Below are positions 34,566 to 61,530 of a stretch of 64,000 bases of DNA, piece after piece. How positions within the stretch are numbered: position 1 is the first letter of the stretch; each line of letters starts with the position of its first letter. The stretch is from Botryllus schlosseri (taxonomy: Eukaryota), in contig CM119371.1 in the NCBI GenBank assembly GCA_051294905.1, positions 5,954,001-6,018,000 of the forward strand, written 5' to 3'. The translations under genes were made by a program, and so were the position numbers. The notes beneath the pieces were generated by a model that saw nothing but the letters and a program-made list of their open reading frames with translations, ran no database searches and was not told the DNA's origin.

Positions 34566-35250
34566 TATTAAATGTTGGTACTACGTGAAAACAGTCCCAA
34601 AATTTCTCAGGCTATCTTTCGTATTGGGGGAATAAGCTATAACTTCTACTTGACAAACTGAAAATAGCGAAAAGTAAGTAAGTAGATTACTAAATATTAC
34701 GAAGTAGAAGTAGAAGTAGAGAAAATCTTGATCAAGTACCAGAAGTAGAGGAAAACTACTTGAGTACTTCCAAAAAGTAGAAGTACATCGTTACTGACCA
34801 CCTCTGAATATTAAATGTTGGTACTACGTGAAAACAGTCCCAAAATTTCTCAGGCTATCTTTCGTATTGGGGGAATAAGCTACTTCTACTTGACAAACTG
34901 AAAATAGCGAAAAGTAAGTAAGTAGATTACTAAATATTACGAAGTAGAAGTAGAGAAAATCTTGATTAAGTACCAGAAGTAGAGGAAAACTACTTGAGTA
35001 CTTCCAAAAAGTAGAAGTACATCGTTACTGACCACCTCTGAATATTAAATGTTGGTACTACGTGAAAACAGTCCCAAAATTCCTCAGGGGATATTTCGTA
35101 TTGGGGGATTAAACTACTTCTACTTAACAAACTGAAAATAGCGAAAAGTAAGTAAGAGGAAACAAACTGAAAATAGCGAAAAGTAAGTAAGACGAAAACT
35201 ACTTCAGTATTTCCAAAAAGTAGAAGTACTTCGTTACTGATCACCTCTAC
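33547..35250. mobile_element. AGTAGAAGTAG-rich non-autonomous DNA element with its right end triplicated in tandem
   Basis: Left end aggtggtcaaagtag; right ends tactgaccacctctg / tactgatcacctcta at ~34806, ~35040 and ~35250. A ~235-245-bp unit starting gaatattaaatgttggtactacg repeats three times (34563, 34806, 35040). Confidence 0.65.
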
Positions 35251-37471: not shown

Positions 37472-40390
37472 GGGGAGACCGGGGACAAATGTAACTAGGG
37501 GCAAATGTAACAATCGACCTCACCGCTAGTAGGATGGAGAAATATCCTTGGTATTTTGACTGCGCATGCGCTAGTTGTTTCTCCTAACATACCTGGAGTC
37601 ACGTTGAGCTGCAGCATGAAACCTCGGAATTATTTGGAAAAAACGAAATTTTCAACACGTGAGTAAAGATTTTCTGATCTAGAATAATTTGTTCTGAAGA
37701 ATAATACCTCAAGTGATTGCAACTTACTATAGGCCGCTGGAACAATGTTACCATAGTCCACCGTGATGATAGGAAAACTAGGATTGGCATCGCCAGGAAA
37801 GTACCGTACGGAGACAGTAATCATGGTCGAACGTGTCAGGGGCAGTTGTAACTCTCTGTTACTTTTGCCCCGTTACAATTTTTATTTTTAGTGCTAAATA
37901 TATTTATTTATATGCTAGTATAATACCCATTTATCTACTACAGATTGTTCTTGCAATAGCTGGACGTTCAATACCAGCATAGATACTGCCTTTGATATAC
38001 CAATTATAACCGTTAACGACCATCCACAGGAGTGATGATGTGAATCTTCTGGTTCAGTTATTTCTCTATGAGTTTCTTCCATCCTTTCTCATGTTGATTG
38101 AGTTTTGGTGTGTCGAATTCAATACTGATTTTACAAATAATCCATGTCTGAACTACGGAATCCCGATCTTCTGAAGTTGGGCGGTTCTCACTTAGCCTAC
38201 ACTTTCTCATTTTCCGTGAACATTTTTTCTAATTTTCTCCAGAATAAAGAATGGTTCGTGAAAGAAAAAGAACTACAGAGCGTGGAAAGGAGCTTCATAA
38301 CTTGACCGAAGCCATTCATCAAGTACTAGACTGTGGGAAGCCTTTAAGATTCGTGGCTCGGAATTTCGGGATTTGTCATGTCACATTGTATCGACACTGT
38401 AAGAAATCTACCAAAGATCAACGGAATAGACCAGCACCAACATGGGGTTACAGCCCACATAACCGTGTATTCAATGAAACCCACGAGAAGATATTGGTTG
38501 AGTATCTTATACAAGCTGCTGACCTATACTATGGTTTGACGCCACGAGAAGTCAGAAAGCTTGCTTTCAACTGTGCTGTAAAGCATCAGCTTAACTTCCC
38601 TTCTAAGTGGAACGATAATCAAATGGCTGGATGTGATTGGTTTAGTAGTTTCTTGAAACGCCATCCTTCCCTGTCAATCAGGAAACCCCAGGCCACTAGT
38701 GTAGCTCGCGCGACTGCATTCAACCGCACTACCGTCAATGAATTCTTCAATAACTTGAAGGATGTGATGTGCCGTTATAAGTTTCCTCCTCAAAATATAT
38801 ACAACGTTGACGAAACAGGCGTGACAACAGTGCAGAGGCTCGATCGGATTGTGGCACAAAAAGGAAAGAAACAGATTGGATCAATGACATCACAAGAAAG
38901 AGGAACGTTGGTTACATGTGCCGTAGCAATCAATGCAACAGGTAACAGTGTTCCCCCCTTTTCGTTTTTCCCAGGAAAAAATTTCATCAACACTTTATAA
39001 GAGATGGGCCGATCGGTTGCACTGGAACGGCCAATGAGTCCGGATGGATGCAGGAAGAAGACTTTGTTGTCTTCTTGAAGCACTTTTCCGATCATGCCAA
39101 GCCTACAAAAGAGCGGCCAGTTCTTCTATTACTAGATAATCATGAGTCACACCTATCCATCAATGCCCTGGAATTTTGTAAGGCGTCACATATTGTCATG
39201 CTCACTTTCCCTCCCCATACATCACACAAGCTGCAGCCTTTGGATAGAGGAGTTTTTGGTCCATTTAAGAAAGCTATCAATTCGGCATGTGATAGCTGGA
39301 TGATGGGGAATCCTGGCACTACTATGACAATCTACCATGTCCCTGGAATTGTTAGCAAAGCGCTGCCATTGGCTTTGAAGCCACAAAATGTTGTGTCCTC
39401 GTTCTCCTGCACCGGCATTGTCCCATTTAACGAAGATATTTTCAGTGAGGTCGATTTCGCACCTTCTCGGGTGACCGACAGACCCAATCCGTTATGCACG
39501 ATAAGCAACGGGACCTCCGGGGAAGGAGCCGAACATGATCAGGGAGATGTGGGAGCAGCTATGGTTCCCGATACGGAGACGATTTGTCAAAATATCCCAT
39601 CGCCGGCTGTTTTGCAGAATGCACCAGAGGCATATTTTAATTTGGAACCTTCCACAAGTCTCGGAAATGATGAAATATTTTCCCCAGTTAAAGTCCGGCC
39701 ATTTCCAAAAGCAGCACCTCGGAAAGTTACAAATAGAAAAAGGCGTAAATCAGCCATAGTTACTGACACACCAGTGAAAAACCAAATCATTGAAGCTAGG
39801 CGGAAAACGATGGCGAACAGATTTCAAAAAAAACTTTTCCCAAAGAAGAAAGGATCTTCGCAATCATCCCAAACATCAGAAACAGACGAATCTAACATAT
39901 GTCTGATTTGTGATGAGCATTTCAGCAACAGTCGCCCAGGAGAGAAATGGATCAAATGTGTCTCTTGTACACTTTGGGCGCATGAGGAATGCACGACGGG
40001 AGACGCAGTATTTAACTGCCAAAACTGCGAGGAGGCATAGCCTGGAAGCTTTCCAATATTTCTTTTGTCAGTCTTTTTTGCAATGTTAACATTTATGTTC
40101 ACATTTCCGTTTTCAATTTCGTTCGTTCTAAGTTATATTGAAAACTGTTACAATTGCCCCACATCGGTGGTACAATTGCCCCGGGGTACGGGGCGATTGT
40201 AACGTTTGAGCGACGATTTTCGCGATCAAAAATTTCCATGATGTATTGTTGATTGATTTTCTTTGTTGTTCTTGTATGAACTATTGAGTTCATAGTTTCT
40301 TTGTGTAAAACTTTGGAAAAAAAATTTTCATGAAAAATACACCAAATGTCCAAAAATACGAAAAGTGTTACAATTGTCCCCGGTCTCCCC
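37472..40390 (+). mobile_element. pogo-superfamily (Fot1-like, DD35D) DNA transposon, full length 2919 bp
   Basis: 24-bp TIRs GGGGAGACCGGGGACAA(A/T)TGTAAC with one mismatch; TA duplication at 37470-71 and 40391-92; subterminal GGGCAANTGTAAC repeats at both ends. Confidence 0.96.
38251..40040 (+). pseudogene. pogo transposase (HTH-psq + CENP-B HTH + DDE_1 + PHD finger) split by one frameshift
   Basis: ORFs 38251-39000 and 39048-40040 join through a 1-nt shift near 38960 to give VPPFFVFPRKKF…ANESGWMQ. Catalytic motifs NVDETG, LLLLDNH and QPLD, with 35 residues between D2 and D3. C-terminal C4HC3 motif CLIC…WIKCVSC…AHEEC…CQNC. Confidence 0.92.
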
Positions 40391-40580: not shown

Positions 40581-41094
40581 TTAGTTCAATTTTAGCTCTA
40601 TCATGGTGCAACCTTCATCTGCCTTGTACAAATATGAACTGTAGGCTTGTGATAAACAGCAAAATTATGATTTTTCTTGAAAATTACATCATACTATTTA
40701 TGTAGAAATTAGTAGACCTTTATTATTCCAAAGCTAATTTTGCTGCTGTATTTCTTAAAGTACGTGGTCGTGTCTTGAAAATCCGCGTCTTCGTTTTGAT
40801 ATGAACGAGGAGTGCCGAAAACCATTTCCGCAAAGATAGATGGATGCTAATCCAAGATTAACGCATAACGCTTCCGACAATACTTTTGGTGTGATCGCAA
40901 CATTTAGGGCACCAAAATGAAGAAACATATATTTTATGAACATATCACGTCCAGCATCTAGCGCAGGGACAGGCCACATACGGACCGCGGGCCGAATTCG
41001 TTGTGCATCATTCTTTCACACAATCAATAATTATAGTAAGCTTTTTTCTACATAGCAATCCCACTTGTGTCAAAATTTGTGTGAAGCGTTTTTT

Positions 41095-41362
41095 AGGTAA
41101 CCTAGCAATTTTATCAAGTAGCCAGTACAATTTTTAAAAAAGTCATTTTTGAAACCCCTGGGTCTTGCGATCAGCGTTCACGTTTGAGTCATTTGATTTC
41201 TTTATTAGATGAAGGGAAGACATCAACTGCTGATGGCTGCGGAGGTGAACCTCCATCCTGTAGCACCACTAGTCAAGTCTAGTCAAGGTGCCTGTGTTAT
41301 GTAGAAGTGTGCGAGATTGACTGTTTCTTGAATTGTAGTGACTACTTGATAGAATTGTTAGG
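41095..41362. mobile_element. ~275-bp MITE whose right TIR is split by the Polinton-like insertion (TIR completes at 54987-54993); a second partial copy lies at ~55265-55420
   Basis: ttaggtaacctagcaattttatcaagtagccagtacaatt (41093-41132) is the imperfect inverse of aattgtagtgactacttgatagaattgttagg (41331-41362) + ttacctaa (54987-54994). 55265-55420 repeats 41093-41252 directly. Confidence 0.75.
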
Positions 41363-41380
41363 AGTAGTTATATAGATCGC

Positions 41381-41800
41381 TGGTGACCTGGCAGGGGCTC
41401 TTATGGGCGGGGTGGTGACCTGCCTGAAAACCCGGGGTGATGACCCCACCCTTTTAGACCCCCTATGTGGTGGTGACCTGCCATTGTTTCTTATGGGCGC
41501 GGTGATGACCCCACCCTTTCAGGTATAGGCTGCGGTGATGATATACCTTGAAAACTCGTGTTGGTGACCCCACCCTTTCGGTATAGGCTGCGGTGATGAC
41601 CTGCCGTCTGGTATTCGAGGGAATCCTAACGTTTACGGTGAATACGACTTCGATATATCGTTATTCTTATGGACGCGGCGATGATTCGTACTTTCGGGTA
41701 TAGACCGCGGCGGTATGTTAACTTAGCTGATATAGCCATGATAACGTTACAGGTATAGGCTGTGGTGGTGATTCGCCATGTGTTCTTATGGGTGCGCTCG
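41381..41800. repeat. GC-rich subterminal motif cluster (mirrored at ~54543-54962)
   Basis: Recurring GGTG(A/G)TGACC, CCCACCCTTT, TCTTATGGGCG and GTATAGGCTGCGGTG modules. Confidence 0.8.
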
Positions 41801-44800
41801 CACGTCGTACTTTCAAGTATAGGTATCTCTCGCATGTCGTATACCGCCAGTGTCGGTAACTTGAATAGCGACAAATTGTCACTTATTTCCGCTCTAACCC
41901 TAATCCTTTGTGAAGTGAACGCTTATTCAAAAGGGTGTGATATAATATTAAAATCCAACGACCACTCACCGGATAATGCTTCAGACATATAGCAATCCCT
42001 CATACCCGCTCACAAGGTAATATTTCGGTAATAAGTTTGTCACAGTGCCGTCGCAGACGGTGATTCGAAAACCAACAATTTGTCACTCGCCCGCGATCGC
42101 TATATGTTTCACGCCTCCAGAATAGTGGCTGACTTTAGTTGCGTGATAAGATCCATGAAAATATTCAATCAATGTGTTAGTTTATCAACTTGAAATGAAA
42201 CTCACTACACAAATCAAGTCGATTCGTATCTGAATGTTTTAAATCGGTACAACTCTAATCCTTTGACAAATCCCTTAACGCGCTTTTGTTGAATCGAACG
42301 TAACCCGAATATTACTGACGCCGACTTTCAGCCGCATCGAATTATTCGCACATTCCGCGCCACTGTTTTCACACTTATAGAATCAATACCAACTATAACT
42401 CTACAAGAACCAAGAATCACAAGTATGTGCATTACACAGTTATTGTCTTTATTAACTTGAAATCAAACACTTAACAAAAACACGCAACTAATCATTTGGC
42501 AACTCTAACATTACCAAAAAATTCCAGTATTGTTGATTGAAAATCCTTGATTCATTATTATCAAAAATGTTATAGTACCGCATCGGAATCCATTCGCGGG
42601 ATGTACTGAAGGTAAATCCAGATAATCCAAAATGAAATATTTGGACTTTGACATAGTCTGAATTGAAATATATTGACAAACATGACTACCAACTTTGATC
42701 CAGTCACATTTCAAGATCATACTTTGAAACAATCCTTGAAACTTACAACTCTATTCACGACTGAGTTTTCCGTTTACCAAATAGAGTTTCAGTAAATACT
42801 ATCGCGATATTTTAATGTGTTACTACACACAATAGAATCAATCAATGAAATAGCACCTGTTGTAAATATTTCTAACTTGACAACCACTTGTGCATACCGC
42901 GATCGAGTTGCGACACGATGAGTTAAATCGGAATATTTCAATCTATTTGTCGAAACCTTGAACAAGCTATCTGGTTATTTTTTCGTTGCAATTGAGTTAA
43001 CGGAAATAGTATTACGTCTCGACATCTTACCATCTTACCATACTCCAAAGAGCCAACAAGGAAAAACCTTGTCAAGTAAATCGTTTGTAACTCACCCAAT
43101 CAACTCAAACAGTATCAGTATGAAAACATTCAAGCATACACGAGTAATCGCTACAATCTAAAATCCATAGCATGTTCGGTTTTAGGCATATACCGTCAAC
43201 TCGTCTTTTTTGTTCAACTGTAAAAGTCGTTACTATTCTGCGAGACAAAGAAATTACTCTGCGGTATATTTTGTAAGATAAAAGTAATTACTTCTCGGTG
43301 CCGGTGACTTGAGATTAACATAATATGTTTGAGTATGCGAGATTTGAAAGTCTGCCCAACATGTTGAGAATTCATTTCTTACAATCGAACACAGGTGTTA
43401 TATTGAAAATTATCATGATGTAAACATAAGGATTGACACATTGATTTGACATATGTAATAGTTGATCATGACTTGATTATTAAATTATTCGCGTTAATTA
43501 GACCCGGCGTTGTGGTAAAGATCATTGTGACAGCAACAAACTTTTCAGTACCATTGTTATTAACATATTGAGTTGTAAACTATGTGTGTCTAAAATGTTC
43601 TTGATAGGAAAATTACTCCACCTTTGTACAAACCACGCAGCGTATTGTAGATATCAGGAAATATTTTACAAATGTAATTGTCTCCACTAACCAAGACTAA
43701 AGATGAAACAACAATTTCCTTTGTTGAACAATAACCGGTACAACACTTTATCATCGTAATCAGCAGTGAGAATTGAAACACTTTCGTACATTATCCGGTG
43801 TCAAGATATCACGCTAGGTGAATTGACATACCGCCGCTTGATTAATACTTATTCCATTCGCACCATTTCACATACTTTGATCATTACAAAAGTAAATTGG
43901 GATATGTTTGCTAGATGCATTCAATTCAGTTAGAAATATCTGGTACACAACAATCGTAATATCAAGGAAGTACTTGCTACGCTGTAATTCACTTAACGTG
44001 TTTTGCATTGTTGTTCATTTGTAGTATTGATTGTTTTTGAACCCCCAAATAATAATTCCCGACATGAAACCAAACCACTGAAAGTCGTTACCATCACAAC
44101 GAAACAATTTGTACGATGTTTGCCAAATGTATCCTATAGTTAGGTGTACTAAAATTATTTGTCTAACACATACACCGATAATGCAGCCGAAAATTTTTCC
44201 GTTATCATTCGCTAAAGTAGATGTAATCATAGTCACTAAAAGACGGTACTTGCATGCGATTGAATCCCTAGCAACTCACTAAACCGAACTCCAAATAAAT
44301 TTTACTCACTCGACGGATATGAAACAGCGTCGCTTAATCGATCTATATCGTTTTTCTAAATGCAAATCATATACACCCAGCAGAAAACAATTTTCACTCG
44401 CTTGGTAATGAAACCGAAGTCTCCATTTGATATTTTATTTTTGGTCAAATACTTTGCAATGAACACATTTGAGTGGTTGAGCTTTACATCATCAAGCTGT
44501 AATCTGTAAATCAAGCTTACATCCGATTTGTAACTGTATCGTTTAACTACCGGGTTGCATCAGTTTGCCATTTTTGTCATTTAGCGACTGCTGAACATAC
44601 CAAACGATACACATTCACTTACGAAATACTGTGTTGATCGTAATTTCCATCATCGTGATAATCGAAGTACATTTGTTTCGAGTTCAAAACAACCGACTAC
44701 TTCTCTATGACATGACGAATTTTTGAAAAGTTATGCTTAGAAGATTGGTGCATCTCGCGAAAAATAATATACCACTCATATTGATACTGTTACTCCATTG

Positions 44801-46334
44801 ACCGGTATTTTCAAACGAGTCGATTTTCAACCGAGCAAAATTTATTACTTGAGTTGTCCCGCTTACTATATTTAAGTGTAAACTCACCCGTCTTTCAAAA
44901 CCACAACAAACAATGATAAAAAGTACACAAGCGAACACAACAAGTTTTACTTTTGTAGGACATTAATTATTATTCCACGCATCTCATTTCATACTAAGTG
45001 TATATGAAAGATATTCATGGTACACGAAAATATTCGATATTCCATGCTACGAACATACGCAATGATTGGTGACGCTTTCACACTATTTCGATTTAGTGTA
45101 TCATAAACAACAACAACAATTTTCACTCTCTTGACTTATGAAAACAACAGACGAACCTTCATTCAATATTTGGTTTTTGTCAACTAGTTACTTTTTCATG
45201 AGACCCCCACAACTCTTACAAAAGTACGAAGGATATTTACATCACACAAAGTAATCAACTTTACTCGATATTCTCACATTACGAAACTAAAGAAAAGTTG
45301 GTTTGACTCTACAAACTGTTTTGTTACCTCAAGACCTTTATTGTCTGAATGGTTGTTCATGTGTCTTAAGAACCAAATAGTTCAACACAGCACTAGTACC
45401 AACAGCAACATCAGAGTTGTTTACACAAAAGTTTGTATGTGCGCAGTATGTGAATACCGCGTGTAAGTCCAACACAATTGCAGTATCCAGCCGAGATTAG
45501 TTAACACCAATTTATTACAACGGAACCACGTAAACTTTCGTGAATGTAAGGCATACTCACCTCTCGAGATTATGTCAATGTCATAGCAATAAACCAGCTA
45601 CTCCAACAACAGAGTACATATGTTTTCTAGTTACGGTGCTTACATCTTACACACAAATCGACCTACTTTGCTAACGAAAAGCGCTGAGTCATCACATGGT
45701 TATCCTCACAACAATACAACTAAAACATACTATCATACAAATTGGTCGTTATAGTTTGCCCACCAACGATACATCGTACAAGTAGCAAGTCTCGAGAATC
45801 CAGTTATTCAAAAAACGTGAAAGTGTTTCTACACCAAGTCGGTATGTTGACGAAAGCATATATTGTAATATCATGATCGATTTACATTCGTTGGTCACAA
45901 AATGTCACTACTCTAAATAATTATTTTTCACTCAAAGCCTACTTGTCACCATTCGTTTCATCAAGCACGAGTTCAAGAAACCTGCTACGACATGAATTGT
46001 TATTTTTATGTTGTGTAAATAGGTAATAATTAATTTTAGTAACACTATATCAACATCATCGAGTTGTGCGAATAGATTTACATGTGGTCTTGTGGTTTTA
46101 ATCGAAGTATACAGCACGGTCTAATGTAGAGTCATCTCTACTGTACAGCAACTCGGTAATCGAAATGCATTCAAATTTAAACAACGATCTTGTTTCGTCG
46201 CACCAAAAATATGTTTACTATCGCGATACTCTGCACAAGCCGTGCAAATCCTTTTCACACTCGTAATAGTATACAAACAGCTACCGGCGACAACGTTTAA
46301 CAATACCAACGACACTAAACATACGATACCTACC

Positions 46335-46950
46335 CAAGTAAAATTACCATTTTCACCTGGAGGTCGGTCGTTACCCGAGTAGAAATACCATTGTCCTTTG
46401 GAGATTTATCGTTTACCCAGTGTAACAAACCCCTTTTCCTTTATAAATCTATTTTTTCTCTGTGTAACAAACCTTTTTCACTTGGAAATATATTTTTCTC
46501 TGGTTAACAAACCTTTTTCACTTGGAAATATATTTTTTCTCTGGTTAACAAACCTTTTTCACTTGGAAATATATTTTTTTTTTCTGGGTAACAAACCTTT
46601 TTCACTTGGAAATATATTTTTTCTCTGGGTAACAAACCTTTTTCACTTGGAAATATATTTTTTCCCCGCGTAACAAACCTTTTTCCCTGAGCAACAAACC
46701 ATTTTCACTTGGTGGTCCATCGTTTACCCGAGTAAAAATATCATTTTCTTTTGGAGATCCGGCGTTTATCCAGTGTAACAATTCATTTTCACTTGAAAAA
46801 ATACTTTTACCTAGAGTAACTAATCATTTTCTCCTGGGTAACAAACCCTTTTCGTTTGGAAACTATCATTTACCTGAGTACCAATACAGTTTTCACTTGG
46901 AAATCTACCTTCTCCCTGGGTAACAATATCATTTTCGTTTTGAAAACCGA
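46335..46950. repeat. ~40-bp minisatellite inside the element arm (mirrored at ~49393-50008)
   Basis: Core unit AACAAACCTTTTTCACTTGGAAATATATTTTTTCTCTGG(G/T)T; near-perfect at ~46465-46680 and degenerate outward. Confidence 0.9.
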
Positions 46951-48340
46951 CAACCACACCGGACAATTTGATATTTTTGTATATTGTTACAACGGGCAGT
47001 GACAAAATATACACCAACAACGACTCCGATACATTTGTCTAATCAAATATTCACTTGCTCTGATGCATCCCATCAAAATCATTGGTTACTCACGTACAAT
47101 AACAATGTGCTATTGTACATCGACATGTATGTTTTCGGAATTGGTGAATAAAGGGGTTTCCGATATGTCCGTGATGTCCGGGTTTGTGCTTTGGATTTTC
47201 CAGAGTCAAAATGTCTGAATAAAACACCTCCTCGACTTTGGTAACTGGTTGATACACGGATAATGGTGTTCGGAAAACGGATGAATTTATGTTCCCCATC
47301 GCGCTGACAACATCGGGTTACTTGTGAGTTTCCTCGGGTCTGTTTACTATATTGTGTCTTTACTGGTCAATACATGTCGCTCCAGTCAGCTGAAACCGGA
47401 TCACCAATATGAGAAAGTGTGGGGGCCGGATCCGGATATTCACTCATGACCCAACGACCGATATTCAAGTAAACATGTTACAGACCGTGTTTTGTCTCCA
47501 TGAAAAATGCCAATGCATACACCATCACATCAAGTTCGTCACGATTGTTCACAAGTATTCGCGTAAACCAGGTGTATATACAATGTGTCGGTGTACAAAC
47601 ATCACGGAAAACAAATTCATGTTCTCAAGTCTCATCATGCGACGACTCTGTACATTCAATGTGGGCATAGATGACTTGGGGACAAGCAAGCAGCCATATT
47701 TGGACGTAACATGGTCTTAGTTTGAACCGACCGCCACCCAACTTGTGAAAAATCAATCTCACACGAGTACAACCCTTTCACGGATTCACACCTTGATTTT
47801 GCAAGATTGTTCGGATTCTCAGGTAGACTTGTATGGCGATACAGACTTCGACATAATCGAGTTGCGTAACTCGCTCAATCCCTCCACGTATTGTTCGTCC
47901 TAACCTGCGAACTTTTTTGCTGCGACCGCAGTGTTTCACCTGGTATAATGTATTTGGCGATCACCATCGTTATCAATCTTTCACGCGATGAATATGTCAG
48001 ATGTCGCTACTCCCACATAACGACTGCAGATAAACATCGTGAGCAGTGACTCCAGATTGAAATCGTAAACAGGGACTCTGTGTGTGTGAATCTCGAGTTC
48101 GATTACGATTAGATAATGTAATCCAAAGTGTGTCTCTGCAAGTTGGAGGCTTATTTCGTCTTAAAGGTTTATTTCGTGTTAATCACACCGCAAGAGGGTG
48201 CTGTCTCGTAATTCTACATGTCGTTATAAAACGCGGATGGAAACTTTTGGTCTAGTTGATCCAGCTACGTATTGAAACGGTTCACCCACGCAGACCACTG
48301 AGAAAACGTTGTCGTTACCTGACTATATGCACGAGTAAAT

Positions 48341-48619
48341 ATGGGACTACGCGTAACTGTCCATCGGTTTCTTTGGCCTCACACCGTGGTTTTACGACAC
48401 AGACAAGATGCAGCGGTGGAAATATTGAAAATGAAAAACGATACCTTGGTGACATTTGATATGGATTTTACACCTGATGAACCATACACTCGATTGGTAC
48501 ATTGGGATGACAACTCTATCGTCGAGGTCGAGGGAAAAGAAATGTACAGATTTGTTGGTGTTGTGGATATTCAGCGAAAATCAGGGTATATGGTTGTAAT
48601 GGTTCGCATATTTGACTGA
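48341..48619 (+). CDS. Intact 92-aa ORF of unknown function in the unique spacer
   Basis: ATG start, protein-like composition (…DTLVTFDMDFTPDEPYTRLVHWDDNSIVEVEGKEMYRFVGVVDIQ…), flanked by same-strand stop-interrupted frames. Confidence 0.45.
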   Translation: MGLRVTVHRFLWPHTVVLRHRQDAAVEILKMKNDTLVTFDMDFTPDEPYTRLVHWDDNSIVEVEGKEMYRFVGVVDIQRKSGYMVVMVRIFD

Positions 48620-48658
48620 GAATATATCGGTACGCATAATGCACTGTCCATTGTATCA

Positions 48659-51600
48659 TGTCCCCAAGTCATCTATGCCCACATTGAATGTACAGAGTCG
48701 TCGCATGATGAGACTTGAGAACATGAATTTGTTTTCCGTGATGTTTGTACACCGACACATTGTATGTACACCTGGTTTACGCGAATACTTGTGAACAATC
48801 GTGACGAACTTGATGTGATGGTGTATGCATTGGCATTTTTCATGGAGACAAAACACGGTCTGTAACATGTTTACTTGAATATCGGTCGTTGGGTCATGAG
48901 TGAATATCCGGATCCGGCCCCCACACTTTCTCATATTGGTGATCCGGTTTCAGCTGACTGGAGCGACATGTATTGACCAGTAAAGACACAATATAGTAAA
49001 CAGACCCGAGGAAACTCACAAGTAACCCGATGTTGTCAGCGCGATGGGGAACATAAATTCATCCGTTTTCCGAACACCATTATCCGTGTATCAACCAGTT
49101 ACCAAAGTCGAGGAGGTGTTTTATTCAGACATTTTGACTCTGGAAAATCCAAAGCACAAACCCGGACATCACGGACATATCGGAAACCCCTTTATTCACC
49201 AATTCCGAAAACATACATGTCGATGTACAATAGCACATTGTTATTGTACGTGAGTAACCAATGATTTTGATGGGATGCATCAGAGCAAGTGAATATTTGA
49301 TTAGACAAATGTATCGGAGTCGTTGTTGGTGTATATTTTGTCACTGCCCGTTGTAACAATATACAAAAATATCAAATTGTCCGGTGTGGTTGTCGGTTTT
49401 CAAAACGAAAATGATATTGTTACCCAGGGAGAAGGTAGATTTCCAAGTGAAAACTGTATTGGTACTCAGGTAAATGATAGTTTCCAAACGAAAAGGGTTT
49501 GTTACCCAGGAGAAAATGATTAGTTACTCTAGGTAAAAGTATTTTTTCAAGTGAAAATGAATTGTTACACTGGATAAACGCCGGATCTCCAAAAGAAAAT
49601 GATATTTTTACTCGGGTAAACGATGGACCACCAAGTGAAAATGGTTTGTTGCTCAGGGAAAAAGGTTTGTTACGCGGGGAAAAAATATATTTCCAAGTGA
49701 AAAAGGTTTGTTACCCAGAGAAAAAATATATTTCCAAGTGAAAAAGGTTTGTTACCCAGAAAAAAAAAATATATTTCCAAGTGAAAAAGGTTTGTTAACC
49801 AGAGAAAAAATATATTTCCAAGTGAAAAAGGTTTGTTAACCAGAGAAAAATATATTTCCAAGTGAAAAAGGTTTGTTACACAGAGAAAAAATAGATTTAT
49901 AAAGGAAAAGGGGTTTGTTACACTGGGTAAACGATAAATCTCCAAAGGACAATGGTATTTCTACTCGGGTAACGACCGACCTCCAGGTGAAAATGGTAAT
50001 TTTACTTGGGTAGGTATCGTATGTTTAGTGTCGTTGGTATTGTTAAACGTTGTCGCCGGTAGCTGTTTGTATACTATTACGAGTGTGAAAAGGATTTGCA
50101 CGGCTTGTGCAGAGTATCGCGATAGTAAACATATTTTTGGTGCGACGAAACAAGATCGTTGTTTAAATTTGAATGCATTTCGATTACCGAGTTGCTGTAC
50201 AGTAGAGATGACTCTACATTAGACCGTGCTGTATACTTCGATTAAAACCACAAGACCACATGTAAATCTATTCGCACAACTCGATGATGTTGATATAGTG
50301 TTACTAAAATTAATTATTACCTATTTACACAACATAAAAATAACAATTCATGTCGTAGCAGGTTTCTTGAACTCGTGCTTGATGAAACGAATGGTGACAA
50401 GTAGGCTTTGAGTGAAAAATAATTATTTAGAGTAGTGACATTTTGTGACCAACGAATGTAAATCGATCATGATATTACAATATATGCTTTCGTCAACATA
50501 CCGACTTGGTGTAGAAACACTTTCACGTTTTTTGAATAACTGGATTCTCGAGACTTGCTACTTGTACGATGTATCGTTGGTGGGCAAACTATAACGACCA
50601 ATTTGTATGATAGTATGTTTTAGTTGTATTGTTGTGAGGATAACCATGTGATGACTCAGCGCTTTTCGTTAGCAAAGTAGGTCGATTTGTGTGTAAGATG
50701 TAAGCACCGTAACTAGAAAACATATGTACTCTGTTGTTGGAGTAGCTGGTTTATTGCTATGACATTGACATAATCTCGAGAGGTGAGTATGCCTTACATT
50801 CACGAAAGTTTACGTGGTTCCGTTGTAATAAATTGGTGTTAACTAATCTCGGCTGGATACTGCAATTGTGTTGGACTTACACGCGGTATTCACATACTGC
50901 GCACATACAAACTTTTGTGTAAACAACTCTGATGTTGCTGTTGGTACTAGTGCTGTGTTGAACTATTTGGTTCTTAAGACACATGAACAACCATTCAGAC
51001 AATAAAGGTCTTGAGGTAACGAAACAGTTTGTAGAGTCAAACCAACTTTTCTTTAGTTTCGTAATGTGAGAATATCGAGTAAAGTTGATTACTTTGTGTG
51101 ATGTAAATATCCTTCGTACTTTTGTAAGAGTTGTGGGGGTCTCATGAAAAAGTAACTAGTTGACAAAAACCAAATATTGAATGAAGGTTCGTCTGTTGTT
51201 TTCATAAGTCAAGAGAGTGAAAATTGTTGTTGTTGTTTATGATACACTAAATCGAAATAGTGTGAAAGCGTCACCAATCATTGCGTATGTTCGTAGCATG
51301 GAATATCGAATATTTTCGTGTACCATGAATATCTTTCATATACACTTAGTATGAAATGAGATGCGTGGAATAATAATTAATGTCCTACAAAAGTAAAACT
51401 TGTTGTGTTCGCTTGTGTACTTTTTATCATTGTTTGTTGTGGTTTTGAAAGACGGGTGAGTTTACACTTAAATATAGTAAGCGGGACAACTCAAGTAATA
51501 AATTTTGCTCGGTTGAAAATCGACTCGTTTGAAAATACCGGTCAATGGAGTAACAGTATCAATATGAGTGGTATATTATTTTTCGCGAGATGCACCAATC

Positions 51601-54600
51601 TTCTAAGCATAACTTTTCAAAAATTCGTCATGTCATAGAGAAGTAGTCGGTTGTTTTGAACTCGAAACAAATGTACTTCGATTATCACGATGATGGAAAT
51701 TACGATCAACACAGTATTTCGTAAGTGAATGTGTATCGTTTGGTATGTTCAGCAGTCGCTAAATGACAAAAATGGCAAACTGATGCAACCCGGTAGTTAA
51801 ACGATACAGTTACAAATCGGATGTAAGCTTGATTTACAGATTACAGCTTGATGATGTAAAGCTCAACCACTCAAATGTGTTCATTGCAAAGTATTTGACC
51901 AAAAATAAAATATCAAATGGAGACTTCGGTTTCATTACCAAGCGAGTGAAAATTGTTTTCTGCTGGGTGTATATGATTTGCATTTAGAAAAACGATATAG
52001 ATCGATTAAGCGACGCTGTTTCATATCCGTCGAGTGAGTAAAATTTATTTGGAGTTCGGTTTAGTGAGTTGCTAGGGATTCAATCGCATGCAAGTACCGT
52101 CTTTTAGTGACTATGATTACATCTACTTTAGCGAATGATAACGGAAAAATTTTCGGCTGCATTATCGGTGTATGTGTTAGACAAATAATTTTAGTACACC
52201 TAACTATAGGATACATTTGGCAAACATCGTACAAATTGTTTCGTTGTGATGGTAACGACTTTCAGTGGTTTGGTTTCATGTCGGGAATTATTATTTGGGG
52301 GTTCAAAAACAATCAATACTACAAATGAACAACAATGCAAAACACGTTAAGTGAATTACAGCGTAGCAAGTACTTCCTTGATATTACGATTGTTGTGTAT
52401 CAGATATTTCTAACTGAATTGAATGCATCTAGCAAACATATCCCAATTTACTTTTGTAATGATCAAAGTATGTGAAATGGTGCGAATGGAATAAGTATTA
52501 ATCAAGCGGCGGTATGTCAATTCACCTAGCGTGATATCTTGACACCGGATAATGTACGAAAGTGTTTCAATTCTCACTGCTGATTACGATGATAAAGTGT
52601 TGTACCGGTTATTGTTCAACAAAGGAAATTGTTGTTTCATCTTTAGTCTTGGTTAGTGGAGACAATTACATTTGTAAAATATTTCCTGATATCTACAATA
52701 CGCTGCGTGGTTTGTACAAAGGTGGAGTAATTTTCCTATCAAGAACATTTTAGACACACATAGTTTACAACTCAATATGTTAATAACAATGGTACTGAAA
52801 AGTTTGTTGCTGTCACAATGATCTTTACCACAACGCCGGGTCTAATTAACGCGAATAATTTAATAATCAAGTCATGATCAACTATTACATATGTCAAATC
52901 AATGTGTCAATCCTTATGTTTACATCATGATAATTTTCAATATAACACCTGTGTTCGATTGTAAGAAATGAATTCTCAACATGTTGGGCAGACTTTCAAA
53001 TCTCGCATACTCAAACATATTATGTTAATCTCAAGTCACCGGCACCGAGAAGTAATTACTTTTATCTTACAAAATATACCGCAGAGTAATTTCTTTGTCT
53101 CGCAGAATAGTAACGACTTTTACAGTTGAACAAAAAAGACGAGTTGACGGTATATGCCTAAAACCGAACATGCTATGGATTTTAGATTGTAGCGATTACT
53201 CGTGTATGCTTGAATGTTTTCATACTGATACTGTTTGAGTTGATTGGGTGAGTTACAAACGATTTACTTGACAAGGTTTTTCCTTGTTGGCTCTTTGGAG
53301 TATGGTAAGATGGTAAGATGTCGAGACGTAATACTATTTCCGTTAACTCAATTGCAACGAAAAAATAACCAGATAGCTTGTTCAAGGTTTCGACAAATAG
53401 ATTGAAATATTCCGATTTAACTCATCGTGTCGCAACTCGATCGCGGTATGCACAAGTGGTTGTCAAGTTAGAAATATTTACAACAGGTGCTATTTCATTG
53501 ATTGATTCTATTGTGTGTAGTAACACATTAAAATATCGCGATAGTATTTACTGAAACTCTATTTGGTAAACGGAAAACTCAGTCGTGAATAGAGTTGTAA
53601 GTTTCAAGGATTGTTTCAAAGTATGATCTTGAAATGTGACTGGATCAAAGTTGGTAGTCATGTTTGTCAATATATTTCAATTCAGACTATGTCAAAGTCC
53701 AAATATTTCATTTTGGATTATCTGGATTTACCTTCAGTACATCCCGCGAATGGATTCCGATGCGGTACTATAACATTTTTGATAATAATGAATCAAGGAT
53801 TTTCAATCAACAATACTGGAATTTTTTGGTAATGTTAGAGTTGCCAAATGATTAGTTGCGTGTTTTTGTTAAGTGTTTGATTTCAAGTTAATAAAGACAA
53901 TAACTGTGTAATGCACATACTTGTGATTCTTGGTTCTTGTAGAGTTATAGTTGGTATTGATTCTATAAGTGTGAAAACAGTGGCGCGGAATGTGCGAATA
54001 ATTCGATGCGGCTGAAAGTCGGCGTCAGTAATATTCGGGTTACGTTCGATTCAACAAAAGCGCGTTAAGGGATTTGTCAAAGGATTAGAGTTGTACCGAT
54101 TTAAAACATTCAGATACGAATCGACTTGATTTGTGTAGTGAGTTTCATTTCAAGTTGATAAACTAACACATTGATTGAATATTTTCATGGATCTTATCAC
54201 GCAACTAAAGTCAGCCACTATTCTGGAGGCGTGAAACATATAGCGATCGCGGGCGAGTGACAAATTGTTGGTTTTCGAATCACCGTCTGCGACGGCACTG
54301 TGACAAACTTATTACCGAAATATTACCTTGTGAGCGGGTATGAGGGATTGCTATATGTCTGAAGCATTATCCGGTGAGTGGTCGTTGGATTTTAATATTA
54401 TATCACACCCTTTTGAATAAGCGTTCACTTCACAAAGGATTAGGGTTAGAGCGGAAATAAGTGACAATTTGTCGCTATTCAAGTTACCGACACTGGCGGT
54501 ATACGACATGCGAGAGATACCTATACTTGAAAGTACGACGTGCGAGCGCACCCATAAGAACACATGGCGAATCACCACCACAGCCTATACCTGTAACGTT

Positions 54601-54980
54601 ATCATGGCTATATCAGCTAAGTTAACATACCGCCGCGGTCTATACCCGAAAGTACGAATCATCGCCGCGTCCATAAGAATAACGATATATCGAAGTCGTA
54701 TTCACCGTAAACGTTAGGATTCCCTCGAATACCAGACGGCAGGTCATCACCGCAGCCTATACCGAAAGGGTGGGGTCACCAACACGAGTTTTCAAGGTAT
54801 ATCATCACCGCAGCCTATACCTGAAAGGGTGGGGTCATCACCGCGCCCATAAGAAACAATGGCAGGTCACCACCACATAGGGGGTCTAAAAGGGTGGGGT
54901 CATCACCCCGGGTTTTCAGGCAGGTCACCACCCCGCCCATAAGAGCCCCTGCCAGGTCACCAGCGATCTATATAACTATT
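48659..54980. repeat. Right arm of giant inverted repeat (6322 bp)
   Basis: Reverse complement of 41363-47684. I spotted only four mismatches (41364/54979, 43943/52400, 45322/51021, 47577/48766). Confidence 0.98.
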
Positions 54981-54995
54981 GTTAGGTTACCTAAT

Positions 54996-55181
54996 TTAAG
55001 GCTGCTGGTTCAATTTAATCCAATAGCCGCATTGCTAGGAGAGACGAAAGTTATTCATGACTTGATAATAAATTTCAAAATTTTATTCATAATCCATGAA
55101 ATTGACATTGACATCTCTGTAGAAACAATGATCACCGAATATGGTCCAATTCCGACTAGTGGAAGCGGAGTTATTTTCTAA
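54996..55181 (-). pseudogene. Possible decayed C-type-lectin-like exon
   Basis: After acceptor ttcttaattAG it reads NNSASTSRNWTIFGDHCFYRDVNVNFMDYE*NFEIYYQVMNNFRLS*QCGYWIKL. W-x2-FG-x2-C-(F/Y) and YWI-x-L resemble CTLD motifs; in-frame stops, and the middle looks deleted. Confidence 0.4.
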
Positions 55182-57499
55182 TTAAGAAATTTAGATTTGA
55201 AAAAAATAGTTTTTACCCTGGCACATTCCGAAGTATTTACCAATATAGTTCTTAGTCAAATTCATTAGGTAACCCAACAATTGTAGCCAGTACAATTTGA
55301 CAGAAAAAGTCCTTTTTGAACACCCTTGTGTCCTGCGATGATCATTCACGTTTGAGTCATTTGATTTCTTTATTAGATGAAGGGAAGACATCAACTGCTG
55401 ATGGATGCGAAGGTGAACCTGAATGTATTATAATAATAATGTATTATTCTGATTGATAGTGTATGGCACCATTCAGGATTACATGGATGGCAAGAACAAT
55501 CCGACCGCACATGAAAATATGGATCGCATATTTGTTCGCCTGGGATCAATTTTGACCCAGCCTTAGTGATGGCGGGTTGGGGTCATAATGCATTCACTAT
55601 TTGTTACTTACTTCAGAGATAGGGGCGGCTAGGCCTGTATTGAACGGTATGTGCTGCGAACCTTTGTGTTCGGTCATCGCGGACCATAGCTTTGTTGGAA
55701 AAACGACCTATCGTATCATAAGGCCACGTATAAATATCGTCATTCCATGACGTTCTAAATACTGCTATCTCTGTCTAAGGAAACGTGCGATCACGCCTCG
55801 AAAGCTGCTGAATAGGGCCAACGGACTGGTGGTGATTAGACTACCAGACAAGCCGAGACAACTAAATTATTAAGGCTATGGCTGACAGGGAATTAGGACA
55901 AACACAATAATTCGGCATCCCTGTTTAGCTCAACTTAACGGAAGAAGAATTTGAGTCAGAATACAGTGTAACTGGAGAATAGCTCTAAAGTAGAAGCTGT
56001 ATTCTTGTATTTCATTTATTATATACACGGATTTATTATACCGATACACAAAATTTATGTTAAGTTCCAGAAAGTAAAAGACATTTTATTGTGATTGAAT
56101 CGCTAAGTGTGCCCCTGAAAAAAAAAACATCTCGGGGACTATGGAGAGTTCATTTACTCGAATGCAAGGCTGCTCAATTTCCACCTTATAGGAAAAATGA
56201 TTTTTCGCAAAGAACATGTTTGTCTTTAATGAAAGTCTGTTATACGGTTATTGTCTATTAAGTAGAGTGTTTATATTAAATTGCAGGGTACAAATCCAAT
56301 TAGGGATGCACATTGTAGTGAATGTGCAGCAGCGCAGCGCAGCGCGAAAAATTTTAGAAAATATTGCATAAATTTTCAAAAAATACTCTATAATTTATGC
56401 TAATTCACGAAATAATTTGGGGCCCCCTTCGAGCTCGCCCCCCCCCAATTGGGGGGTTTGGGGTGGGGCAGTTACGGTGCTGGTGGTTTGTTAATACTGG
56501 AATCAAAATTTCCTGTCCCCGCGACACCATATTACCAAAAACTAGAACTGGGAGAAAATCAACTTTGAAAATTGAAAAATATTTTGGTGAAAAAGTAGAG
56601 CAAGTATTTGAAATCCCTTGCTTTTAAATGGTGCAGGCATGCTGTATTTAGTACATAGCCAAATTTGAAGACAATTGAATGTGCCTAAATGCAAAATTAG
56701 TCATATAAAGTATGAGTGATTCGATGATTTTTTACTCAAAACTGCTATACCATATTCGAAAAATTTGCAAACCTTGAATTGGACATCAGTTAGATGTTGT
56801 AAAGATGAAACAACATATCAAGAATACTGCAACATTGTCAAAATACCCATTTCAGTTGGTATGGGTGAAGATACTACATCCATATTTCCCCCCGAGACCT
56901 TTCAAACATACAATTTTTAGCATCAATTTCATCATGTCACTCCAATACGAATTTGAGTTGCGCAACCCTTATGCAGTATCCTGGGCGCTTGTGCATGGAA
57001 AACCGTAACTCGTACTTTTTAAAGGAAAAAGAGGGCCTATTCCATAGGTGTAAGTGTAATTTTCACCGATCTATCTGGTGTCATGGGGGCGCACTATAGC
57101 CTATGACGACAGCGTGATGCAAATGATCGCATGATCGAAGGCTTCATATGATTCATATTTCCGACTGTTAATCACCGAGCATATGGATATTTTTTCACAA
57201 GAGCTCCCTCATTTTAGATTACCAATCCACCGAATATTAGCCAATCTCCAGGGCATCAGAATTGCGCCAATTTTCGCTTTGCAGATCTAAATTATACACT
57301 AACAGGTTGCGGCATTATGCTACTCAGATAGTCAATTCATATTTACCATTATATACAATAATAGGACGTTCAGAAACTCTATTTTGCGTTATTCGCTATA
57401 TACTATATACATGGATATACGGTACTATATAACCATAGAAATGATAGAATAAATCACTTTATTTCATAAATTTTAATAATACACTGTGATTGACTCCTA

Positions 57500-59030
57500 G
57501 CCCAAAATCACTTATGGATCAGGAATTGGCTATATAATCCAAATTCGAGCATTGCTGATTGCGATTTCAAATGTAAGGCCTTCGGTCGATTTCCAGTTTT
57601 GTCATCACGTTTAGTAGTGAAGTAAATATATCGACGATACATTCCTATCAATTCACCCATTAATCTGGATGTATAGAGCATTTGCGAGTTGAACCATTTT
57701 ATATAGAATCTCATTACGTTTGTAGCAATCCTATTCAGACGTTTGTCCTATCGCATGACCATACCTAGACGGTTATCACTCTCCTCCCACTTTTTAAAAG
57801 GGTAGGCTATTTTATATATTACCTAATACATTCTGCTTTTGTTTAATTGTGAAACTCGGTTATTGACTTCATCGCTGCATTCAGTTGTTCTATCCCCATT
57901 CAACGCGCGCTCCGAAACACGAGACTTTGTCGAATCACGAGGAAAATAATTTGGCTGCCCACTTGTCGTTATGGAGGAGGCGAGATTACCTACCTTATAG
58001 GTAATCGAGGCATGCCTGCCTCTACAGTCACTGTATGGCCTCTGGTCTGAAAGAACTTGCATCCTAAAACTTCCAGACCTATCGCACTCACATCCCACAA
58101 TGGATGTGCCCAGATTCCGTGCTTGCCCTCGAACTCATTTTCATCATCACATTTGTTAGCGCGTATCCTAATGGCGCTTCCGAGAGGATGGCACGTGTGC
58201 GACTTAAAATATAACACATGACATATAACGACCTAATATTCAAATCAACTTCGCGAATGCTGTTCCCAATATTAGCATGTTGTGCAGCCATCGTCAAATA
58301 TCCAATTGTTCAACCCGTATCCGCCCACGGAACACGTTATGAATGCGAAATTATACTTCCGAAATGCACCAATTCCTTGTTTACCAACAATTGCATTTTA
58401 TCATTCGATCAGATTCAAAGCGTCATGAGCACTTTGTCTGCACATTGCCGTATTTTCACGAAACGATCCACCTTTATATAATGATTGTCGATGTAGCCAA
58501 TTACCCGTGTACAAAGCTAATTTCCACTACGATCGGATAATTATCTGCCAAAACTTCAATTTTGTATTTCCATCGAGTAAATTCATGAACTCTCCACTTA
58601 ATGACTTAGTCGACTCGAATCATAGCTGTTCAATAAGGAAATAGTCTACTATCCCAGAATACTACTCAAATAGGTTTTTCATACATGCAGACATATACAA
58701 CGGTATTTCTACTTCTACTTGAGTATCAACGCTGACTACTTTGACCAGCGTAAAATTTATTTCCTCTATCTAATCAAGTTCTCCGGACAAACTTAATAGA
58801 ATTGAAGATAATAATTGTTGATGCGTCTTTATATCGACTTCATGGGCATCAGCAGTGTACAATGTAGGCCTACGACATTTTCTAAAATACTATCGGCAAC
58901 TGTATCGACATGTAACATATATCGGAAAACAGCTATCATGAACCAAATAAGCAGCCTATTACTGGGTGATATCAATATTGCTTCTTCCGCAGTAATATAT
59001 TGTTTTTTATCGAACATTTTTGGACGCTGA
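57500..59030 (-). pseudogene. Candidate endogenous viral element: decayed L (RdRp) gene fragment of a negative-strand RNA virus
   Basis: Intronless, frameshifted segments in L-protein order: RLLIWFMIAVFRYMLHVDTVADSILENVVGL/YTAD (pre-motif A-like), DGNTKLKFWQII (motif B-like, ~58574-58540), VIGYIDNHYI (motif C-like, 58498-58484), NKELVHFGSII (~58375-58355), ITYKVGNL…YFPRD…VSE (~58000-57910). By-eye similarity only. Confidence 0.4.
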
Positions 59031-59563
59031 GAAGGTAATAATACCTGTGGCACCTTCTCTCGTTCGAGGGGCGTTAAGAAAGTCCCCTGTACAATGTGAT
59101 GATTTGCGTTCGCATTGAGCGACACTCTTTCTGTCATTGACCGTGGTGTCGGGTGATTTCCAGATTCCAACTTCATATCTTCTGTGACTCCGGGCGACGA
59201 CTGAAGGGACCCACACTTCGGAAGAGGTGTCACTGGTTCGACTTTTGCCGGCGTCGGCATTTCTAACAGATTTGAAACCCGGTCCATGATTTCACTCCTG
59301 GCCACTGCAGATTTTGCTTGGCTCCTTAAGACTGGTTCTAGCGAATCGGCAGTATTTTTGGTAGGCCTACTCACTTTCCGGACGGTAGTCAAATAGGTTC
59401 TCGCTTGTTTGACGTCTCTTCTGGCTTTTTTGAACAGTTTTGCCGTCTTGTGTAGAATAGACGTCACCTTTTTCACGAATTTTGCTTGATGCTGATGGAC
59501 ACGTGCTGTCACCTGACCTTCATTAGCCCGAGTCGATAGCTGTCGTTGTTGAGTGGTCTTCAT
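58829..59563 (-). CDS. 244-aa ORF, apparently chimeric: basic/Pro-Ser-rich N-terminal ~180 aa of unknown origin fused to the L-like segment
   Basis: Longest ORF outside the pogo transposase; ATG start; composition changes abruptly near 59030 (…LLPSQRP|KMFDKKQYIT…). Confidence 0.4.
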   Translation of the reverse strand: MKTTQQRQLSTRANEGQVTARVHQHQAKFVKKVTSILHKTAKLFKKARRDVKQARTYLTTVRKVSRPTKNTADSLEPVLRSQAKSAVARSEIMDRVSNLLEMPTPAKVEPVTPLPKCGSLQSSPGVTEDMKLESGNHPTPRSMTERVSLNANANHHIVQGTFLTPLEREKVPQVLLPSQRPKMFDKKQYITAEEAILISPSNRLLIWFMIAVFRYMLHVDTVADSILENVVGLHCTLLMPMKSI

Positions 59564-60060
59564 CAGTTGGGTGTTTTTGCGAAGGGTGCGAGTGTCCTCG
59601 TTACGTTTTCGTAGCCAAAATAAGTTTCACAGCAGGCGAACACGTAAGTGCAGGCCTGAAATAACAAAAGAATGCATCGATATCGTGAAAATAAATAGAA
59701 AAATTAACATATTTCCAGGATTTCTTTCCAATTGAAGCTATCCTCTTTGAACCATTCACTTTTGCCCCTCTACCATTCAACTTCCCAATATAGCCAGACC
59801 CTCCCGACATTTTCTCCCTTAAATATCCAGTATTTCTTATTTCCAATAGCTTATTGCTGCTATCGTCTAAACTGGCTTGAAGGTATAGCGACTCCATCCT
59901 AACCCTGATATTACCTGGAACTCTATCTGCTGGGGTTCATGCAGGGGGTCTGTTCAAGATGTTTCATCTATGGGAAGAGCATGAGTAATAATAATAATCG
60001 TTAAGTTATATTATTCATCTGAACAAGTCACACACAATGTAGAAGGCGATAAGAGACAAT

Positions 60061-60972: not shown

Positions 60973-61530
60973 TAGGCTTACCATACGTCCTCTTTTAAGA
61001 GGATTTGTCCTCTTTTTTGACTTTTTTGAAAGTGTCCTCGGAGGACGCCCTTTTGTCCTCTTTTTTGAGATTTTGTCCTCTTTTTTGAAAATTGAGGTCA
61101 GATATAGAGGAAATTGCGAGTGATATGACGTAAAATAGCGCAGAAGTGAAGCTCCGGCGGGTATTTCGGAGGAAAAGCGGTGATTTCAGCTCTGAGCGAA
61201 ATGAAGACCTTTTTTTTTTTTTTTTTTTTTTTTTTCAGTCATCCACCAAGCAATGTGGAGTGGAAAACGTGTTTTTGAGCTCTGAGCGGAAGTGATGACT
61301 TTTTTTTTTTTTTTTTTTTTTTTAGTCATCCACCTGGCAATGTAGAGTAAAAAACGTTATTTTGAGATCTGAGCGGAAGTGAAGACCTTTTTTTTTGTTT
61401 TTTTTTTTTAGTCAACCGACCGCAAAGTGGGAAAAATTCACCGGTATTTGGGAATTCTACTCCGGTTTTGTATCTTGCAAATTTCTGAAAAAGTGTCCTC
61501 TTTTTGCATTTTCAAAATATGGTAAGCCTA
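60973..61530. mobile_element. Complete hAT-type MITE, 558 bp
   Basis: 13-bp TIR TAGGCTTACCATA / TATGGTAAGCCTA; perfect 8-bp TSD TAGTACAA (60965-72 and 61531-38); subterminal TGTCCTCTTTTT motifs; three internal ~90-bp units each carrying a poly-T tract. Confidence 0.93.

Follow-up and report, generated by a model that had tools for sequence, protein, structure and literature searches.

What kind of element could have given rise to a DNA palindrome of 13,618 bp, and by which enzyme would such an element have been moved? The question is raised by positions 41363-54980 of the 64-kb stretch of DNA analyzed here (the window, to which all coordinates refer), where two long inverted arms face each other across a short loop. 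The palindrome is a non-autonomous, gene-less DNA element of foldback architecture that belongs to a large repeat family, and it is a real insertion, which came in (or is at least present) as a single unit. For its mobilization, an integrase of the Maverick/Polinton type, with the arms as hugely elongated terminal inverted repeats (TIRs), is tentatively favored at a probability of roughly 0.45.

The left arm (41363-47684, + strand, 6322 bp) starts with AGTAGTTATATAG and pairs with the right arm (48659-54980, - strand, 6322 bp), whose terminal letters are ...CTATATAACTATT; the loop, or middle domain (47685-48658), is a unique sequence of 974 bp. Arms of 41365-47684 and 48659-54978 with 974 nt between them were returned by a repeat finder, and direct comparison extended both to 6322 bp, which reproduced the two arms and the spacer described in an initial annotation of this DNA. 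The arms are 99.94% identical, with four mismatches in 6322 bp, every one a transition (G vs. A at 41364 and 43943, T vs. C at 45322 and 47577). At the inner arm ends pairing breaks off sharply (5 of the 14 following positions pair), and direct arm comparison found no microhomology at the inner arm/loop junction. No further copy of the loop or the arms was found elsewhere in the window.

Each arm is composite, consisting of the three parts described next and of an inner domain. Degenerate direct sub-repeats of 30-40 nt lie in an outer domain (41363-41830, + strand, mirrored at 54572-54932); they occupy the outer 470 bp of each arm and carry seven GGTGRTGA cores in one orientation. Of the 17 GGTGRTGA sites in the window, 14 sit in the two outer domains, and the expectation for the whole window was 2.8. 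The arm body (41843-47600, + strand; approximate bounds, set by depth bins and by a recurrent loose end before 41843) is the non-coding, high-copy part, and an internal tandem array of 21/41/42-bp units lies at 46346-46946 (+ strand, mirrored at 49398-49997). Foldback elements are marked structurally by TIRs that are long and composite, contain sub-repeats or tandem arrays and enclose a short, usually non-coding middle domain (PMC4079207, PMC3169594), and the palindrome has all of these.

The insertion site was read from the flanks. A TA-flanked repeat resembling a MITE (miniature inverted-repeat transposable element) is split by the palindrome into 41093-41362 and its last 8 bases, 54987-54994. 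The TIRs of this host repeat are about 40 bp long and start with TTAGGTAACC; a second partial copy lies at 55265-55420, is 85% identical to the left flank (41093-41252) and opens with the same terminal sequence. With the element and one copy of the flanking direct repeat removed, the left TIR of the MITE (41093-41145) was compared with the reverse complement of the joined 41291-41362 and 54987-55060, and 44/53 positions matched (36 among the first 40). This empty site aligned with a score of 61, compared with 46 when both repeat copies were left in and 39 when neither was, and the reconstructed sequence was the same for every target-site duplication (TSD) length from 6 to 9 bp. The inverted repeat of the host is restored, and the outer ends of the palindrome are therefore true integration ends. 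Its removal in silico thus supports the earlier suggestion that the element was integrated, or at least now stands, as a unit; the DNA beyond the two ends, described before as different, proved to be the two halves of one interrupted MITE-like repeat. The host MITE is itself highly repeated in the contigs of the runs compared below, and the loose-end consensus there suggests that the MITE repeat reaches further on both sides.

Arm and loop are without recognizable genes, as the initial annotation had held for the core genes. The longest stop-to-stop frame in arm plus loop is 108 aa, and there are four ATG-started open reading frames (ORFs) of at least 70 aa, one pair of which are mirror images. 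Frames of at least 45 aa number 75, a count reached by a second-order Markov null in 32 of 300 simulations, and their density is 10.3/kb vs. 9.1-9.5/kb in other stretches of the window. An apparent ORF excess over mononucleotide shuffles was discarded, as it was gone under the second-order null and on comparison with these other stretches. A Pfam search of the 75 frames returned nothing above the gathering score (best E = 0.009), and Rfam and tRNA scans of the window were empty. Autonomous Mavericks/Polintons are defined, in the excerpted text of one source, by genes for a protein-primed PolB (pPolB), a retrovirus-like integrase, a capsid, a protease and an ATPase (PMC5499653). None of these five was detected by Pfam in the 75 frames, and an autonomous Maverick/Polinton was rejected.

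The loop holds one putative ORF (48341-48619, + strand, 92 codons), whose coding status is unproven. It has a single cluster of unnamed relatives, 70-76% identical, on short Logan and ENA contigs, and the C-terminus of these relatives would result from a 1-base insertion at 48598 that is frequent among other copies. By a rough estimate, its retention at this level of divergence is probably not significant. No Pfam family was found for it, a match to a repeat protein was spurious, none of 72 pattern matches in viral_contigs was confirmed as a relative, and the best Atlas score (0.79) was below a meaningful level. Its AlphaFold2 model had a mean predicted local distance difference test score (pLDDT) of 40.7. 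For another ORF, which spans the loop junction (47394-47717), no relative was found within the range of 59-189 aa only.

Family size was estimated from public contigs. The stretch 41000-48800 is partly present in 20 runs (10 studies, 3 organism codes), and no RNA run is among those listed. Contigs of four runs, X1 and X4 (organism A), X8 (organism B) and X14 (organism C), were aligned to 40800-48800 at a likeness of at least 90%, and 163,852, 11,987, 1,415 and 797 contig pieces were placed, respectively. In X1 the summed word depth was about 26 thousand in the tip bin (41334-41600), 125-470 thousand in the arm body (41601-47474), 76 thousand at 47475-47741 and 24-59 thousand in the loop, and the profile was alike in shape in X4, X8 and X14. 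Under three species labels the arm body is present as a repeat of very high copy number. Its abundance exceeds that of tips and loop about 10-fold; therefore, full palindromes ending in these tips are a minority of the family. In X1, X8 and X14 a loose end is seen repeatedly before 41843, with a consensus that is much alike in X1 and X14 and different in X8; the X1/X14 consensus preceding 41843 has no match in the window. At many of the positions listed (e.g., 42046 and 42608) both arms differ from the letter of nearly all other family copies, and at 45322 the family letter is that of the right arm. Exact words were also sought: the terminal 22-mer gave no match in metagenome_contigs and viral_contigs, a 22-mer from the 41-bp array none in metagenome_contigs, and a subterminal 19-mer none in viral_contigs.

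The junctions of the loop are also seen in contigs of other runs. Junction 47684/47685, which the initial annotation had singled out to be followed in other insertions, is multi-copy, with contigs at 47685 in X1 (55), X4 (8), X8 (3) and X14 (3). It is crossed by an X8 contig that spans 47641 to at least 47729, and by an X14 contig that runs from 47648 or before to 47712, with just 28 letters on the loop side. The second junction, 48658/48659, is bridged by an X14 contig (record 16, 48532-48697) with 127 + 39 letters, 6 differences and 2 gaps; an X4 contig (record 24) runs along the loop as far as 48660 and from there into 44 letters unlike the right arm. Both loop junctions are thus seen again, each under one other species label or more, and organisms B and C may carry an orthologous locus. 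Among the contig pieces listed, none spans the whole 40800-48800 stretch. The recurring junctions look like those of a propagating foldback family rather than of a single copy-back defective genome. The initial annotation had taken the palindrome for one end of a Polinton copied back on itself, living as a parasite of a helper. That story is weakened, not refuted, because no gene remnant was found in 6.3 kb that would be expected to span the polymerase or the integrase plus capsid genes, and because the repeat family is very abundant.

The choice of enzyme turns on the outermost bases. AGTAGT forms the left tip and ACTATT, one transition away from ACTACT, the right one, so that the AGTAGT-type termini reported earlier stand on the left and not on the right, and the two supposedly identical ends are nearly identical arms that differ by the four transitions, one of them in the tip. 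Directly outside both ends lies GTTAGG (41357-41362 and 54981-54986). The 6-bp duplication reported earlier is present; because of the T in the right tip, however, the flanking repeat extends to 9 bp and can be read as ATTGTTAGG, at 41354-41362 on the left and at 54978-54986 on the right, where it takes in the final 3 bases of the arm. The length of the TSD is therefore ambiguous, from 6 to 9 bp. A 6-bp parse gives AGTAGT//ACTATT, two tips that differ by a transition at tip position 2; on a parse of 7, 8 or 9 bp the left tip has G, AG or AGT as 1, 2 or 3 unpaired extra bases. Like the other three arm differences, the mismatch at the tip is a transition. By rough estimate, the 6-bp parse, which takes a tip mutation and a coincidence of 1/64, and the 9-bp parse, which takes AGTAGT by chance (~1/4096), would be of the same order. 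The balance would shift somewhat toward the 6-bp parse if mutation were faster in the tips than inside the arms. Faster tip mutation is expected at protein-primed ends; conversion tracts unable to reach the edge could be another cause of it. No other pair of Maverick-type ends with a 6-bp TSD was found in the window.

These tips were compared with published ends. In excerpts of a vertebrate survey, the commonest Maverick end motif is 5'-(AGT)2//(ACT)2-3' with perfect 6-bp TSDs, (AG)3//(CT)3 is given as a further Maverick/Polinton motif, TIRs measure 46-1,447 bp and intact elements 12,723-24,620 bp (PMC8097293). The palindrome carries the first motif, as described for vertebrates, with the right end one transition off. 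The choice of a Maverick/Polinton-type integrase is based on (AGT)2 at the left, (ACT)2 less one transition at the right, an AT-rich stretch next to the tips and the flanking 6-bp duplication. Three other groups with a 6-bp TSD were tried and rejected, as their tips (TA..TA in IS3EU, TA..TA or TG..CA in GingerRoot and TGTNR in Ginger2, in the partial descriptions used) do not fit the AG...(C/T)T found here.

On the favored reading, the element would have entered the inverted repeat of the small MITE as one piece, through a staggered cut made by a DDE-type enzyme supplied in trans, and this enzyme would be an integrase of the Maverick/Polinton type. The long arms would most likely have come from elongation of the TIRs, by a strand switch (copy-back) or by panhandle-templated repair during strand-displacement replication, and the palindromic form itself would have been propagated after the arms had grown. 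The enzyme family, the mode of replication, the origin and upkeep of the likeness between the arms and the existence of a helper are all inferred. There is a precedent for the growth of Polinton TIRs, since gene-bearing TIRs of about 2 kb are described for Pieris butterflies in the excerpted part of a preprint (10.1101/2025.02.07.637071).

Several points weigh against a Maverick/Polinton integrase. The (AGT)2 motif is borrowed from vertebrates, and the window is without CpG depletion, so that the host is probably not a vertebrate. (CpG observed/expected was 0.7-1.4 in every 1-kb bin of 36001-60000, repeats included, with no hint of CpG loss through methylation.) The 6-bp duplication is one parse only of a 9-bp flanking repeat; it makes the extra 3-bp match a 1-in-64 coincidence, and it needs a mutation at tip position 2 although the arms otherwise differ at 3/6316 sites. 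Classical foldback transposons have this same anatomy, with modular TIRs, tandem repeats inside them and a middle domain that does not code for protein; very high copy numbers are the rule in non-autonomous cut-and-paste families, and most members of this family are not full palindromes bearing these tips. No remnant of any Maverick gene was found by Pfam in 7.3 kb (75 frames). A literature search gave no high-copy or palindromic non-autonomous Maverick derivative, and the excerpts of one vertebrate survey note an apparent absence of non-autonomous Maverick copies. A stronger claim would make the palindrome a true Maverick/Polinton satellite, that is, a gene-less palindrome of near-genome length that keeps the ends for protein-primed replication and integration, has its arms regenerated by snap-back/panhandle replication, is integrated (and perhaps packaged) by a helper, and is high-copy in several related animal species; we regard this as unlikely.

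The chief competitor is a classical cut-and-paste foldback transposon, most likely of the Mutator/Foldback type with ATTGTTAGG as a 9-bp TSD, mobilized in trans by a transposase of its family; a hAT (8 bp) or P/Galileo-like (7 bp) form is less likely. Such an element, which we hold to be a real possibility though short of probable, would have 1-3 extra bases (G, AG or AGT) at its left tip and would resemble a Maverick by chance, and in its 9-bp form it predicts a flush AGTTATATAG tip. It accounts for the perfect 9-bp direct repeat at 41354-41362 and 54978-54986, for the outer sub-repeats, the 41/42-bp tandem arrays and the non-coding middle domain, and for the very high copy number under several species labels, and the reconstructed empty site fits every TSD length equally. 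In the sections excerpted, published foldback families are mostly of the Mutator type, with 8-10-bp TSDs, composite TIRs and no ORFs, and Tm1 has asymmetric terminal motifs outside its TIR (PMC3169594, PMC4079207). The price is a pair of unequal tips, as the 9-bp repeat is obtained only with 3 unpaired left bases; moreover, the extra left bases spell exactly AGTAGT, about 1 in 4096 for an arbitrary hexamer, and the tips differ by a plain transition, as the arms do at their three other mismatches. No transposase relative was found, though no genome search aimed at one was made.

Two further explanations do without a mobile palindrome. An element with short TIRs could have inserted here and later have suffered an internal break that was repaired, through break-induced replication or gene conversion, by copying inward from the opposite TIR, leaving the TSD intact and a palindrome that never moved. 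The arms differ at 4/6322 sites and jointly depart from the family letter at many of the positions listed, and these shared, arm-specific letters indicate that the arms became alike late relative to the spread of the family. Late conversion in place is further suggested by the X4 contig that leaves the loop at 48660 into letters unlike the right arm, and by a junction without microhomology, as after end joining. Yet 48658/48659 is bridged in a contig of another species label (X14) and 47684/47685 is multi-copy in the four runs, which makes a palindrome formed in situ improbable, though it may be rescued if sister species share an orthologous locus. An assembly artefact, in which a foldback read was chimeric or a repeat collapsed and entered the contig in that form, is scarcely credible. 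The family is highly repeated and no spanning contig is among the pieces listed, as such an artefact would have it, but a foldback artefact would invert the flank, whereas the flanks here differ and complete one MITE TIR with a clean duplication. The four real arm differences and the 974-bp unique loop also speak for a real structure, as does the presence of both loop junctions in contigs of other runs.

Among known systems, the sex-chromosome palindromes have large arms that are kept alike by arm-to-arm gene conversion. Large chromosomal palindromes share with the present element kilobase arms of >99.9% identity around a unique spacer, but they are without a bounding TSD and are not mobile. 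Palindromic forms also occur among defective genomes, as in adenovirus and in the hairpin/palindromic deletion derivatives of yeast linear killer plasmids. Copy-back and snap-back defective viral genomes, as far as they are described in the excerpts used, likewise have one end duplicated in inverted form, no coding capacity and two identical replication/integration ends; they differ in being extrachromosomal in infected cells and derived from recognizable helper sequence (PMC13506859). The palindrome, in contrast, is a heritable, integrated copy from a large family, and it has no similarity to any helper genes. With the foldback transposons Drosophila FB and Tetris, Meloidogyne Tm1 and Galileo it has in common TIRs that are modular, very long and equipped with sub-repeats and internal tandem arrays, a middle domain that is short and non-coding, non-autonomy and many rearranged family members. 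Those elements have 7-10-bp TSDs and other tips, whereas a tip of the Maverick motif is found here, and their TIRs, largely made of tandem repeats, mostly range from hundreds of bp to about 1-2 kb, compared with 5.7 kb of complex unique sequence per arm. Mavericks/Polintons are matched in the (AGT)2 left tip and near-(ACT)2 right tip, in a possible 6-bp TSD, in having TIRs and in a total length within the intact range (PMC8097293). They are not matched in gene content (pPolB, integrase, capsid, protease and ATPase), in the very high copy number or in the ambiguous TSD length, and arms of 6322 bp stand against published TIRs of 46-1,447 bp (PMC8097293) and about 2 kb in Pieris (10.1101/2025.02.07.637071), as given in the excerpts of both sources.

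Other features of the window lie outside the palindrome. A satellite of 21.8 kb (3941-25753) consists of 298.8 copies of 73-bp units with 95% matches and a strong AT skew of about -0.25, and a smaller tandem repeat (34562-35156) has 2.5 copies of 234-bp units, also with 95% matches. A pogo/Tigger-like transposase remnant (38248-40040, + strand) is made of overlapping frames of 250 and 364 aa (DDE_1, E 1.8e-17); its ORF at 38946-40040 has a best identity of about 54%, with relatives in insects and fishes alike. On the other side of the palindrome are an open frame of 265 aa (58829-59626, - strand) for which no Pfam family was found, and a short local tandem duplication (61173-61417) with an offset of about 90 bp and 85% identity.

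The meaning of the palindrome for its family depends on the enzyme. If a Maverick/Polinton integrase moved it, then such integrases can mobilize gene-less passengers to very high copy number, and terminal repeats could grow into near-complete palindromes that propagate; this would bear on Maverick replication, for which panhandle and copy-back intermediates have so far been proposed only, and on defective-interfering parasites. Were it a true Polinton satellite, it would be the first high-copy Polinton parasite and a heritable DNA counterpart of snap-back defective-interfering genomes, and loci of this kind might also yield long hairpin RNA by which the family is silenced. If instead it is a foldback element of the Mutator type, it would belong to an ordinary family with unusually long arms, and a 6-bp TSD with an AG tip would be insufficient to call a Polinton. 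Under either reading, a near-perfect inverted repeat of 6.3 kb is a likely hotspot of rearrangement and a possible source of hairpin RNA.

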